NCBI GenBank assembly: GCA_963792075.1
Contig: CAWBUW010000002.1
Location: 466,850-530,849 of the forward strand
DNA: 64,000 bases
Origin: an uncultured Chloroflexia bacterium
GTDB lineage: Bacteria; Chloroflexota; Anaerolineae; Anaerolineales; UBA4823
Direction of reading: 5' to 3'
The notes below the pieces were generated by a model. That model was given only the letters and a program-made list of their open reading frames with translations. It was not told the DNA's origin and did not search any database. Position 1 is the first letter of the stretch; each line of letters opens with the position of its first letter. The translations under genes and the position numbers were made by a program. Shown piece by piece: positions 4,618-61,806 of this stretch.

Positions 4618-4660
4618 TTGGTAGAGTGTGCGGCAGTGAAACTGCTGCACACTCTACCAA
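4618..4660 (+). repeat. 19-bp hairpin, TTGGTAG-GTGTG type
   Basis: TTGGTAGAGTGTGCGGCAG tgaaa CTGCTGCACACTCTACCAA (one G-T). Starts 2 nt after the E2 stop. Its outer stem matches that of the 1294-1338 hairpin. Confidence 0.9.
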
Positions 4661-6969: not shown

Positions 6970-8106
6970 TTATAGATCTTGAACGGTGGCAGCCTGGCGC
7001 TGTGCGAAGAAAGCCGCCGCGTATAGGTCGAGTGTGCCATCCAACACAGCCTGGCGCAGCTCGCGCGCGATCTGCAACAGCGTGTGCAGGTTGTGGATGG
7101 AGAGCAGCGTAGCCGAAAGCATCTCTTTGGCTGCGATCAGGTGGCGCAGGTATGCCCGAGAAAAATGTTGGCAGGTGTAGCAGGTGCAGGCAGAGTCAAT
7201 CGGCTGGGGATCCTGCGCATAGGCGGCATTGACTAAGTTGATCCGCCCGGTGCGCGTCATCGCCGCGTTATGGCGTGCCAGCCGGGTGGGCAGCACACAA
7301 TCGAAGATGTCCACGCCGCGCAGCACACCCTGCACCAGGTCTTCAGGGGTACCCACTCCCATCAAGTAGCGTGGGCGGTCTTCTGGCAGAATCCGATCCA
7401 CCAACTCCAGCGTGGCATACATTTCTTCTTTTGACTCGCCCACCGACAGCCCGCCAATGGCGCTGCCCGGCAAGTTTTGTGCTGCCACGAACTCGGCCGA
7501 GCGCTGGCGCAGGTCGGGGAAGATACCGCCTTGTACGATGCCAAAGAGCGCCTGGTCGGAACTTTGTTTGGCGCGCTGGCAGCGTTCGAGCCAGGCGTGG
7601 GTGCGCAGCATGGCGCGTTCGGAGTACACCCGGTCGAGGGGCGAGGCGCACTCATCGAAGGCCATGATGATATCTGCCCCCAGGTTCTCCTGGATGGCGA
7701 TGGCTTTTTCAGGCGTAAAGCGGTGCAGCGAGCCATCCGTGTGGCTTTTAAAAGTCACGCCATCCTCATCAATTTTGCGCGCATCCGCCAGCGAAAAAAC
7801 CTGGAAGCCGCCCGAATCGGTCAGCATGGGCCGGTCCCATTGCATAAAGCGGTGCAGACCGCCCATTTCAGCTACCAGCTCATCGCCGGGACGCAAATAG
7901 AGATGGTATGTATTCGATAGGACCAGCGTGGCGCCCAACTCGTGCAGTTGGGCGGGGGTGATCGATTTCACGGTAGCCTGGGTGCCGACCGGTGCGAAAA
8001 CGGGGGTGGGCAGCGGTCCGTGCGGTGTATGGAACACGCCCGCACGGGCTCGCCCCTGGCGGGCATGCAGTTCGAAGGAAAAAGGAGGTAAATTACTTAT
8101 ACTCAT
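6970..8106 (-). CDS. tgt: queuine tRNA-ribosyltransferase
   Basis: 378 aa with LTDSGGFQV and a C-terminal CxCxxC zinc motif. Confidence 0.93.
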   Translation of the reverse strand: MSISNLPPFSFELHARQGRARAGVFHTPHGPLPTPVFAPVGTQATVKSITPAQLHELGATLVLSNTYHLYLRPGDELVAEMGGLHRFMQWDRPMLTDSGGFQVFSLADARKIDEDGVTFKSHTDGSLHRFTPEKAIAIQENLGADIIMAFDECASPLDRVYSERAMLRTHAWLERCQRAKQSSDQALFGIVQGGIFPDLRQRSAEFVAAQNLPGSAIGGLSVGESKEEMYATLELVDRILPEDRPRYLMGVGTPEDLVQGVLRGVDIFDCVLPTRLARHNAAMTRTGRINLVNAAYAQDPQPIDSACTCYTCQHFSRAYLRHLIAAKEMLSATLLSIHNLHTLLQIARELRQAVLDGTLDLYAAAFFAQRQAATVQDL

Positions 8107-8120: not shown

Positions 8121-8156
8121 CCTTTGGAGGGGGATATTGGGTTGTGTATGTGTATC

Positions 8157-8265
8157 GGTTCATTGGGAGTTGCCGTAACAAAGGGCAATTGTGGGGGTAT
8201 TTTGCGGGCTTTGCCCGCAAAATACCCCCACAAAACCGCCCTATCATGGCGATTCCCAGAGAGCC
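8157..8265 (+). mobile_element. MITE-like palindromic element, family 1, copy A (109 bp)
   Basis: Termini GGTTCATTGGGAGTTGCCGT ... ATGGCGATTCCCAGAGAGCC. Flanked by identical TGTGTATC at 8149-8156 and 8266-8273. Nested rod-like hairpin. Confidence 0.7.
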
Positions 8266-8424
8266 TGTGTATCCATTATCAATCCATGGGGTTTCTATTG
8301 AAAGGAATTGGCCTACAATTAAGAGGGCCGATCCATATTTCACATTTGAGAAGGCCTTCAAAATTCAGCCAAACGGCTGCGGGGTCGAGAAGGCCATAAT
8401 TTCTTTTTTTCGACGGAGGAAAAC

Positions 8425-8595
8425 ATGAAACTCAGTACACCTAAAAACATTACGTTCTGGATCGCAGTAGCACTTGCAGCCCTAGGGTTGCTTGCCAGTT
8501 TAGTCACGATCCCGGTGCTATCCCCCCTTGCCTTCTGGCTGGTGGTGGTCGGTTTCGTCGTTTTGGCATTGGGCAACCTCCTAGAAGGTTTCTAA
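8425..8595 (+). CDS. small two-TM membrane protein (56 aa), absent from the ORF track
   Basis: GGAGGA lies 5 nt before the ATG. MKLSTPKNITFWIAVALAALGLL...VVVGFVVLALGNLLEGF. Followed by a terminator. Confidence 0.45.
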   Translation: MKLSTPKNITFWIAVALAALGLLASLVTIPVLSPLAFWLVVVGFVVLALGNLLEGF

Positions 8596-8670: not shown

Positions 8671-8710
8671 GAAGCGGGCATACCTGCCAGGTGTGCCCGC
8701 TTCTGTTTTA
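8671..8710 (+). terminator. intrinsic terminator
   Basis: 10-bp stem GAAGCGGGCA/TGCCCGCTTC, then TGTTTTA. Confidence 0.7.
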
Positions 8711-8712
8711 GT

Positions 8713-8803
8713 GGGAGCACTCAAAAGTTGTTGTAAAAGGGGGTTGTGTGCGGGCGGCGTAAGCCGTCCGCACACAACCCCCTAACAACCTTTTAGTGCA
8801 TCC
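8713..8803 (+). mobile_element. MITE-like palindromic element, family 2 (91 bp)
   Basis: Termini GGGAGCACTCAAAAG / CTTTTAGTGCATCC. 20-bp core stem at 8739-8782. Flanked by GTTTTAGT at 8705-8712 and 8804-8811. Confidence 0.6.
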
Positions 8804-13238: not shown

Positions 13239-13296
13239 ATGCACACCTGTGATGTTGCTGCCGCGCACCAACATCACAGGTGTGCATTTATTTTTA
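13239..13296. terminator. bidirectional intrinsic terminator between convergent genes
   Basis: 19-bp perfect stem ATGCACACCTGTGATGTTG/CAACATCACAGGTGTGCAT, with TTATTTTTAAT downstream and an A-rich tract upstream. Confidence 0.7.
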
Positions 13297-21977: not shown

Positions 21978-22118
21978 GGTTCATTAGGAGTTGCCGTGCA
22001 GAGCTTGCTTAATCGAAAGCCCTGCGTTCCACACCCCTCCCCCCAACTTTAAGAAAACCCTGAGTTGCCGTGACGAAGGGCTATATATGCCCTCTTCCAC
22101 GGCAATTCCTGGAGAGTC
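21978..22118 (+). mobile_element. family 1 element, 141-bp variant (copy C)
   Basis: Starts GGTTCATTAGGAGTTGCCGTG and ends CACGGCAATTCCTGGAGAGTC. The interior differs from copies A/B and contains CCCCTCCCCCC. No clear flanking duplication. Confidence 0.55.
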
Positions 22119-22139
22119 TCGTAAAAGCTGCGATTTAGG

Positions 22140-23036
22140 TTAAATCATTTTTATGATGATGCCGGCCAATACGAGAAGAATGAACGTGCTTACCGAGATC
22201 GCAAGTGCGATCATTTGGTGGCGAGGGAGCAGGCCAAGGAATGCTATGGGCCATGAATAGTATCCCATATACGGCGAAAAGAAAGGCCCTCCGAGTATAG
22301 CGCCTTGGCTCTGCCGTTTAACCACCGACCAAACCAGCAAAGGCAAGCCCACTAGTATCGAATAGGGCCAAAACGACAGATTCCATCCAGGAGGATCGTC
22401 TAGGAGTTTGCCGTACTGAAAGAAATAAGGTCCGTAAATTATAGTGGTGGCGAGGAAAAGCAGTGTAACTGGTAAGAAGGTGCTGATGATTCGGCGCATT
22501 CCACCTTCGCGATAAGCCTCAACTAGCCAATAGACAATCAGTCCAATTCCGAGTTGCGGCTTGGTCAGGGAGAAGAAAAGACCGATCTGGGGAGGGAGTA
22601 CATAGCCAATGGCAACCAGCCAGTCGATATTAGGGTTGAGGATATTATGGAATAGGTAGAGAGGGTTTGCTACCATCAATGCTGCCACCAGTAGCGAAGC
22701 GCCCATTTTTTTTGCTACGAGAAAATATGTTACCACAGCTACTGAAGCCAGTATGGCCCGCCCGACATCTGCTGGAAGAAATGCAATCGTAACGAGCGGG
22801 AGTAATGACCAGGGCACCCAGTGGCAGTTTTCTAGATCGTTAGGATTCTTTCCGGTGATTAAATACTGAGCACCGGGTCGGAAACAATTATCCCAATCAT
22901 TGGAGAACTTTTGAGTTTTTCCAAGGTAATATGCCAGTGCAAAAACACAAATGCCCAAGATGATTGTAGGGATAATGTTCTTGTATGACTTGATCGTCTT
23001 CAAAGCAGGGGGTTGATGAATAATAATTTCTGTCAT
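22140..23036 (-). CDS. polytopic membrane protein, GT-C-like putative glycosyltransferase
   Basis: 298 aa with about 8 TM helices. AT-richer than its surroundings. Divergent from a GT2 gene. Confidence 0.6.
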   Translation of the reverse strand: MTEIIIHQPPALKTIKSYKNIIPTIILGICVFALAYYLGKTQKFSNDWDNCFRPGAQYLITGKNPNDLENCHWVPWSLLPLVTIAFLPADVGRAILASVAVVTYFLVAKKMGASLLVAALMVANPLYLFHNILNPNIDWLVAIGYVLPPQIGLFFSLTKPQLGIGLIVYWLVEAYREGGMRRIISTFLPVTLLFLATTIIYGPYFFQYGKLLDDPPGWNLSFWPYSILVGLPLLVWSVVKRQSQGAILGGPFFSPYMGYYSWPIAFLGLLPRHQMIALAISVSTFILLVLAGIIIKMI

Positions 23037-23040
23037 AAAA

Positions 23041-23083
23041 CATCTAATGGGAACTGCCCCATCACGGCAACTCCCAATGAACC
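23041..23083 (-). mobile_element. family 1 element, 43-bp ends-only derivative (copy D)
   Basis: The minus strand reads GGTTCATTGGGAGTTGCCGTGATGGGGCAGTTCCCATTAGATG. Lies 4 nt upstream of the start codon at 23036. Confidence 0.5.
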
Positions 23084-29559: not shown

Positions 29560-29593
29560 ACTACTTACACGATCTGCGCTGCTTGATTCTTTC

Positions 29594-29702
29594 GGTTTAT
29601 TGGGAGTTGCCGTGGCAGCGGGCAAATGTGGGGATGTTTTGCGGGCAAAGCCCGCAAAACATCCCCACAGAACCGCTCCATTACGGCGATTCCAAGAGAG
29701 TT
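29594..29702 (+). mobile_element. family 1 element, copy B (109 bp)
   Basis: Same length and termini as copy A. Flanks are ATTCTTTC and ATTTTTTC. Lies in the gap-pgk spacer. Confidence 0.7.
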
Positions 29703-29741
29703 ATTTTTTCCGAGTTGAGCAGCGCAGATTTTGGAGGCTCC

Positions 29742-56735: not shown

Positions 56736-56782
56736 TTTGGGGTTTATTTTGGGCGGCGGAGCCGCCCAAAATAAACCCCAAA
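56736..56782 (+). repeat. 22-bp perfect hairpin filling an intercistronic gap
   Basis: TTTGGGGTTTATTTTGGGCGGC gga GCCGCCCAAAATAAACCCCAAA. Confidence 0.9.
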
Positions 56783-58662: not shown

Positions 58663-58667
58663 GAGGT

Positions 58668-58710
58668 GGGGTGTTCAAAGGGACGGCTTTGCCGCCCCTT
58701 TGAACACCCC
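58668..58710 (+). repeat. 20-bp hairpin (one mismatch)
   Basis: GGGGTGTTCAAAGGGACGGC ttt GCCGCCCCTTTGAACACCCC. Confidence 0.85.
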
Positions 58711-58733
58711 AAAATATTATCCGAGGGCATCTT

Positions 58734-60579: not shown

Positions 60580-60618
60580 AGGGTTATGTGTTTGTGCACA
60601 GCACAAACACATAACCCT
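60580..60618 (+). repeat. 18-bp perfect hairpin filling an intercistronic gap
   Basis: AGGGTTATGTGTTTGTGC aca GCACAAACACATAACCCT. Lies 2 nt after the upstream stop and 6 nt before the next SD (minus-strand sense). Confidence 0.9.
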
Positions 60619-61614: not shown

Positions 61615-61806
61615 ATCTTTTCCTTTCCCCCTCCCCCCTTGGGGGAGGGCAGGTTGCGAAGCAACCGGGGTGAGGGAGAATAGACGTCCCCTCACCCCTA
61701 CCCTCTCCCCAGGCTGCGCAGCAGCCGTTGGGCGATGGGCAGGATCTTTACCCCTCCCCCGTTGGGGGAGGGCAGGTTGCGGAGCAACCGTGGGGTGATG
61801 GAGGAG
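61615..61806 (+). repeat. two ~62-nt direct copies of a GC-rich hairpin unit plus linker hairpins
   Basis: The units at 61615-61678 and 61743-61806 each contain CCCTCCCCC-N3-GGGGGAGGG, GGTTGC-N3-GCAACC and GGGGTGA.GGAG. Confidence 0.85.

Follow-up and report, generated by a model that had tools for sequence, protein, structure and literature searches.

Correia/NEMIS in Neisseria, RUP in Streptococcus, ERIC, Nezha and Chunjie are small, intergenic, multi-copy elements that have terminal inverted repeats, form stable hairpins and are mobilised in trans. MITEs linked to the ISL3 family, with 8-nt direct repeats and ends that begin GGCTCT, have been documented in Microcystis, and a 187-nt MITE of Microcystis aeruginosa has been attributed to ISL3 transposases (PMC11448079). 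Our literature search found no earlier description of an ISL3 MITE in Anaerolineae. Here we analysed a 64-kb stretch of DNA (the window) in which a 109-bp intergenic element lies at 8157-8265, and we are highly confident that this element is a MITE that descends from an ISL3-family insertion sequence (IS) of Chloroflexota and relies for its movement on the transposase of such an IS, acting in trans. An earlier note on this DNA had read the element as MITE-like, non-autonomous and flanked by a target-site duplication. This reading is supported by an ISL3 IS with the same ends and by the recurrence of 8-bp duplications at other sites, and it is consistent with the element-free gap-pgk spacers of relatives.

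The element at 8157-8265 and its copies in the window

The features of this element and of the related copies in the window are as follows.

8149-8156, no strand: target-site duplication, left copy, TGTGTATC, 8/8 identical to 8266-8273
8157-8265, plus strand: 109-bp MITE copy with intact termini, beginning GGTTCATTGGGAGTTGCCGT and ending ATGGCGATTCCCAGAGAGCC
8157-8178, plus strand: left terminal inverted repeat (IRL), GGTTCATTGGGAGTTGCCGTAA, matching the autonomous IS at locus L019 in 21/22 positions of its IRL
8190-8232, no strand: central perfect palindrome, with 20-bp arms at 8190-8209 and 8213-8232 and the loop TTT at 8210-8212
8244-8265, plus strand: right terminal inverted repeat (IRR), TCATGGCGATTCCCAGAGAGCC, with two mismatches to the family IRR consensus
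8266-8273, no strand: target-site duplication, right copy, TGTGTATC, 8/8 identical to the left copy
21978-22118, plus strand: 141-bp rearranged variant, consisting of an IRL, ~62 bp of unrelated sequence and a mini-element at 22062-22118
23041-23083, minus strand: 43-bp decayed remnant, in which a degenerate IRR follows a perfect 22-bp IRL
29586-29593 and 29703-29710, no strand: duplication of the second 109-bp copy, ATTCTTTC/ATTTTTTC, 7/8 match
29594-29702, plus strand: second 109-bp copy, between gap and pgk, 83% identical to the copy at 8157-8265

The coordinates and ends of the element at 8157-8265, its length of 109 bp and its perfect 8-bp flanking duplication are all as the earlier note gave them. 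As a control for the TGTGTATC duplication, the flanks were compared in shifted registers, which matched at 0-4 of 8 positions, and an empty site corresponding to 8149-8273 would be predicted to read ...GTATGTGTATCCATTATC... with one TGTGTATC. The copy is located between tgt (6970-8106, minus strand) and a 56-aa ORF (8425-8595); its 109 bp have no coding capacity, and the ORFs that overlap it gave no match in a Pfam search. Because its ends are intact and its duplication is perfect, this copy looks recent and is probably the youngest of the insertions in the window. The IRL at 8157-8178 is presumably the end that is bound and cleaved by the transposase.

The neighboring 56-aa ORF, on the plus strand, is hydrophobic and unannotated (MKLSTPKNITFWIAVALAALGLL...) and lies within the 800-bp spacer between tgt and an aminotransferase gene. 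A terminator-like hairpin and then a second long hairpin (8671-8703 and 8738-8783) are situated 3' of this ORF, and the motif TTTTAGTG occurs three times around the ORF and the two hairpins.

We found four matches to the 20-mer of the left terminus, with at most one mismatch, in the window (8157, 21978 and 29594 on the plus strand and 23083 on the minus strand), where the chance expectation was none (100 dinucleotide-preserving shuffles). All four copies are intergenic, one between tgt and the small ORF, one between gap and pgk, and two flanking a 298-aa membrane-protein ORF; three of the four have decayed ends and two carry no duplication. The second 109-bp copy and its 7/8 flanks, both reported in the earlier note, were confirmed, and the outermost bases of this copy have decayed to GGTTT... 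/ ...GAGAGTT. The 141-bp variant is likewise present at 21978-22118 with a recognisable right end (4/22 mismatches); in its mini-element a second, partial IRL core (GAGTTGCCGTGA) stands at the start and the IRR at the end, and a duplication is absent, the flanking 8-mers agreeing at 1/8 positions. The 43-bp piece at 23041-23083 on the minus strand does exist, but it is a decayed remnant and not the ends-only derivative that it had been called, since its right repeat is degenerate (10/11 inner bases match and the outer 7 have diverged), and no flanking duplication was found.

The left-end repeats at 21978 (plus) and 23083 (minus) face outward and bracket the 298-aa ORF (22140-23036, minus strand), a multi-pass membrane protein that adjoins glycosyltransferase and methyltransferase genes in the lowest-GC part of the window (52%). 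A composite transposon at 21978-23083 around this ORF is not supported; its ends share no duplication (3/8) and the ORF has no Pfam match.

In the gap-pgk spacer, a native 12-bp perfect hairpin is formed by 29572-29583 (ATCTGCGCTGCT) and 29718-29729 (AGCAGCGCAGAT), and is followed by TTTT and the pgk RBS. The MITE copy at 29594 sits in the AT-rich loop of this hairpin, so that the native stem now extends the MITE rod. The spacer is 182 bp long in the window and 65 bp long after subtraction of the element and one copy of the duplication. In one relative, with 87% GAPDH identity, the gap-pgk spacer has 64 bp, the same layout (hairpin, T-run, RBS, and ATG) and no copy of the element; in another, with 92% GAPDH identity, it has 139 bp and an unrelated hairpin, and again the element is missing. 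The spacer lengths fit (65 vs 64 bp), but the spacers of the relatives are too diverged for base-by-base alignment, and no nucleotide-level empty site was found among these relatives, the closest being only 92% identical in the GAPDH protein. Any effect of the insertion on the host would be incidental, e.g., a hairpin of -70 kcal/mol added to the gap-pgk transcript.

An ISL3 insertion sequence with the same ends and the family across Chloroflexota

The element shares its termini and the length of its duplication with an autonomous IS, its targets are AT-rich and mostly intergenic, and near-identical 109-bp copies of it are dispersed. No transposase had been noticed in the window, and a tblastn search for an ISL3 transposase found none in the 64 kb. 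A transposase bounded by the same termini is present in an Anaerolineales genome, where an autonomous ISL3-family IS of 1391 bp (L019 6279-7669) has the IRL GGTTCATTGGGAGTTGCCGTGA and the IRR ...TCACGGCAATTCCTAGAGAGCC and is flanked by the perfect 8-bp duplication GCAATTCG, in agreement with the 8-nt direct repeats given for ISL3 elements in the literature (PMC11448079). Its one ORF of 420 aa matches DDE_Tnp_ISL3 (PF01610, E = 1.4e-64) and Zn_ribbon_ISL3 (PF14690, E = 1.2e-6) and is annotated by NCBI as an ISL3 family transposase; this combination of an N-terminal zinc ribbon and DDE_Tnp_ISL3 in a single ORF is that of ISL3 elements, for which about 400-440 aa and an IS of about 1.2-1.5 kb are expected. 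The identical IS, with an identical transposase, lies beside at least four different flanks in other assemblies, with contigs that break exactly at the IS ends. A second autonomous copy (L036) has the same ends and a transposase 66% identical to the first, and shares its metagenome contig with a 109-bp element. The MITE termini are thus seen on an autonomous IS at L019/L091-L095 and at L036.

A scan for GGTTYATTRGGAGTTGCCGT in one genome per prokaryotic species gave 29 loci. Twenty-four of them are in Chloroflexota MAGs, labelled Anaerolineae/Anaerolineales, Chloroflexia, or Ca. Aquidulcis (Limnocylindria), and show the extended terminus and, contig permitting, the matching right end. The five loci outside Chloroflexota (Kordia, Alteromonas, Pseudomonas, and others) were discarded; they lie in coding sequence without the extended terminus or the right end, and five is about the number expected by chance. 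The Chloroflexota loci have conserved termini (GGTTCATTGGGAGTTGCCGTGA ... TCACGGCRATTCCCAGAGAGCC) and widely differing interiors; the consensus of the IRL agrees with that of the IRR at 18/22 positions, and at least 67 elements have two recognisable ends. The lengths of the elements cluster at 53-66, 109-110, 140-141, and 157-161 bp, size classes among which we found no consistent helical phase.

The genome scan and the window together gave 22 complete elements, of which 13 have flanking octamers identical at 8/8 positions and four more at 7/8; registers shifted by 1-3 bp gave background values. The 109-bp subfamily was also sought in metagenomes by its left-repeat core and the palindrome's GC clamp; the 59 loci obtained represent 42 distinct sites within a single metagenome population, and perfect duplications flank most of these sites. 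In the pooled data, 34 of 67 distinct sites have duplications of 8/8 and 14 of 7/8, i.e., 48/67 at 7-8 of 8. The recurrence of the 8-bp duplication at most of these 67 independent sites bears out the earlier reading of the flanking octamers as a target-site duplication, and dozens of near-identical 109-bp copies were found at unrelated sites beyond the window. The perfect duplications have an A+T content of 76% compared with 44% for the surrounding DNA, and a crude ORF call places 52/67 sites between genes. Where the flanking genes are co-directional, 12 elements point the same way and nine the opposite way, with no bias in orientation. Strong native hairpins enclose or adjoin the gap-pgk copy and several other copies; an insertion preference for hairpin loops found no support, the reconstructed empty sites having a mean of -15.5 kcal/mol versus -16.7 kcal/mol for the neighboring sequence.

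Several features of individual loci are also worth recording. The length of 109-110 bp is common to elements with dissimilar interiors (L002, L003, L006, L012, L017, L020, L025, L027, L028, and the window copies). A subfamily of 140-161 bp with the same termini (L010 3875-4034, L016 3565-3725, L018, and L029) has an interior full of ACACGGA/TCCGTGT repeats, which resemble the inner terminal repeat (CACGG) and, by this likeness, may be extra transposase-binding sites. In L047, L069, and L079 (a minus-strand copy), the 109-bp MITE is interrupted just after the central palindrome by a foreign sequence with ...TACTCGTGACAAGAGCC, whose resemblance to the end of another ISL3-type element suggests a nested insertion. 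In the MAG labelled Anaerolinea thermophila SulCav_PC08_66_51_18, several contigs start or stop within ~50 bp of the repeat (L001, L010, L015, and L021), which indicates that the family fragments short-read assemblies.

The rod-like fold and the central palindrome

The element had been described as folding into a rod, and the fold energies of both 109-bp copies confirm this: on the plus strand the copies form rods of -77.7 kcal/mol (8157-8265, z = -11.6) and -69.6 kcal/mol, with z between about -10 and -12, and the minus strand is almost as stable (-68.3 kcal/mol, z = -10.2, for 8157-8265). Such a stable fold could also be that of a structured non-coding RNA gene or a cis-regulatory RNA family selected for its rod, with the repeats as paralogous RNA genes, a reading that we consider very improbable. 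It would be favored, beyond the fold itself, by the covariation check in an alignment of 11 diverse copies of the 109-bp subfamily, in which 9/36 pairs covary and the observed score was reached in 0/500 shuffles, and by the outer-stem mismatches, which are G-U-compatible on the plus strand only. However, the outer "stem" is formed by the terminal repeats of a transposase-encoding IS, the copies are flanked by 8-bp duplications, their orientation shows no bias with respect to neighboring genes, and the apical covariation is purely Watson-Crick and strand-symmetric, with loops that come as reverse-complement pairs. The earlier note had recognised no RNA family in the element, and Rfam likewise gives no match at the gathering threshold in the window; the matches below it are to generic (miRNA-like) hairpins, the best with 26.6 bits against a threshold of 90. 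Scans for sigma-70 promoters and for intrinsic (Rho-independent) terminators found no site inside either 109-bp copy, and the apical stem has TTTT before it and AAAA after it on both strands.

The three G-T pairs of the outer stem had been taken as a hint of a plus-strand RNA, which is unsupported. In this stem the left repeat pairs with the right repeat, and the consensus repeats differ at 4/22 positions. The first G-T pair, at position 13 of the left repeat (G against A), is fixed across the family and is found in all 11 aligned copies and in the autonomous IS of both L019 and L036. For the second, GGCGATT against GGCAATT, the variant is common and is shared with the L036 IS; the third is a C-to-T substitution private to the window copy, which reads CATGG instead of the family's CACGG. 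Since the first two pairs occur in the autonomous IS as well, they reflect asymmetry or polymorphism of the terminal repeats, and none of the three speaks for an RNA.

The two compensated apical pairs and the TTT and AAA loops by which the two 109-bp copies differ were correctly described. Across the 11 copies, 100% of the cells of the 16-pair apical helix are paired, with a single G-U cell, and 6/16 pairs are changed on both sides, including a block change from TTTT/AAAA to GGGG/CCCC; in the outer helix, seven pairs vary on one side only. The 3-nt loops fall into reverse-complement pairs, namely TTC (21) and GAA (9), TTT (3) and AAA (4), and TCC (1) and GGA (1), and in a second subfamily the one-base center of the palindrome also flips (G in L002 and C in L028). 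When the loop orientation was compared with four informative polymorphic sites in a four-gamete test, all four allele combinations occurred with each site, so loop flipping is recurrent or has been shuffled among copies by recombination. At the 16 sites sampled in two to three metagenomes the orientation never differs, and hence the loop is not a rapid in-place switch. The strict Watson-Crick upkeep, the block changes, and the loop inversion together point to a palindrome kept perfect by homogenisation at the DNA level, rather than by selection on RNA, and the compensated apical pairs are explained by a palindrome of the DNA no less well than by an RNA structure under selection. The same pattern of loop inversion is known from the hairpin-associated minute inversions in plastid spacers such as trnH-psbA (PMC2903610). 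There, too, a loop between perfect arms recurs as its reverse complement on different backgrounds, but these inversions belong to an organelle and not to a transposon, and the analogy is only mechanistic.

Simple neutral decay explains neither the constancy of the 109-110 bp length nor the strictness of the palindrome. We regard it as rather unlikely that the palindrome and this size are required for, or made by, the transposition mechanism. In that case the ISL3 transposase would act on a folded MITE, as a cruciform or a single-stranded hairpin, or else a copy-out step would switch templates inside the palindrome; if true, such structure-dependent transposition would explain the six compensated pairs, the flip-flop of the loop, which recurs from copy to copy but not within a site across samples, and the same length of elements with dissimilar interiors.

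The window also contains stand-alone, near-perfect hairpins of 18-23 bp (1292-1340, 4618-4660, 8738-8783, 13239-13287, 56736-56782, 58667-58711, and 60580-60618), mostly with 3-nt loops, which have unique sequences and are found directly after the end of a gene or in the space between convergent genes. Their 5' arms are G+T-rich and their apices GCGGC/GCGGGC-like, in the style of the central palindrome of the MITE (compare the hairpin at 56736, TTTGGGGTTTATTTTGGGCGGC, with the MITE core, TGTGGGGGTATTTTGCGGGC), and most are not followed by a T-run. They may be gene-end hairpins of the source lineage. Related to the structure-dependent reading, and likewise rather unlikely, is the idea that the MITE carries a mobile copy of this type of host hairpin and is tolerated, or exapted, as a 3'-end element of mRNAs. 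Two 48-nt repeats that contain a hairpin (CTTTCCCCCTCCCCCCTTGGGGGAGGGCAGGTTGCGAAGCAACC...), located at 61623-61670 and 61746-61793, are 92% identical, lie 123 bp apart, and are unrelated to the MITE.

Proposed mobilisation, remaining alternatives, and known systems

An ISL3 transposase encoded elsewhere would bind the terminal repeats of ~22 bp and move the 109-bp DNA, which would integrate at AT-rich sites by staggered cuts of 8 bp. The binding, the catalysis, and the supply of the transposase in trans are inferred from the way ISL3-family elements and MITEs generally behave. The partner IS would be present elsewhere in the source genome or would have been lost, and in the latter case the decayed copies would be fossils. 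The rod-like fold would arise from the terminal repeats, which pair with each other, and from the central perfect palindrome, in which template switching or gene conversion between the arms would keep the pairing perfect and invert the loop.

The copies could instead be remnants of a full-length IS, deleted in situ at each site and not transposing separately. Decayed copies do exist in the window (23041-23083 and 21978-22118), and MITEs first arise as deletion derivatives of an IS; however, the same 109-bp sequence, with a palindrome that is not that of the IS, recurs at over 40 unrelated sites that each carry a separate 8-bp duplication, and at 12 of them the sequence is identical, whereas independent deletions would not yield identical products. 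This origin is contradicted for the 109-bp class and is possible for the 43-bp remnant, and as an account of the family we give it very little credence. Least probable is a REP/BIME-like palindrome spread on single-stranded hairpins by a RAYT (IS200/IS605-type, HUH tyrosine) transposase: the element is indeed short, palindromic, intergenic, and multi-copy, and the window is rich in stand-alone perfect hairpins at gene ends, but REPs make no target duplications of fixed length, such as those at 7-8 of 8 positions in 48/67 sites here, the termini are those of an IS with a DDE ISL3 transposase, and neither a conserved GTAG-type 5' motif nor a RAYT was seen.

The Chloroflexota MITE, as a mobile derivative of an ISL3 IS, is an ordinary kind of selfish DNA and reveals no new type of system. 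For annotation, it explains a class of intergenic repeats with a strong fold, in genomes of Anaerolineae and of other Chloroflexota, that could otherwise pass for RNA genes, and it accounts for contig breaks in MAGs, several of whose contigs end exactly in the repeat. It also yields the terminal-repeat sequences for a subgroup of ISL3 found in at least three labelled Chloroflexota classes. With regard to mechanism, the many near-identical copies, which differ mainly by inversion of the loop, are a natural dataset on the upkeep of perfect palindromes, usable for studies of template switching or of the poorly understood chemistry of ISL3 transposition. The points of remaining interest are the conservation of the termini across Chloroflexota classes, the 109-110 bp length, the flip-flop palindrome, and the likeness of the core to the hairpins of 18-23 bp at gene 3' ends.

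Correia/NEMIS, RUP, ERIC, Nezha, and Chunjie depend on other parent transposase families and have other duplication lengths (e.g., TA for Correia and RUP), and we know of no sequence similarity between any of them and the Chloroflexota element. With the ISL3-family IS (ISfinder), the window element shares the terminal repeats of the 1391-bp IS, which start GGCTCT/GGTTC, and the 8-bp duplications at AT-rich targets; unlike the IS, it has no transposase, is 109 bp long, and contains a central palindrome that is not seen in the IS interior. The 187-nt MITE of Microcystis (PMC11448079) is likewise non-coding, forms a stem-loop, and has imperfect terminal repeats that match those of ISL3 (GGCTCTTCG...) and direct repeats of 8 nt, but it differs in phylum, sequence, and length. 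Compared with the Microcystis MITE, the Chloroflexota element is distinguished by one long perfect palindrome in its interior, by loops that flip-flop, and by termini that are conserved across several classes.
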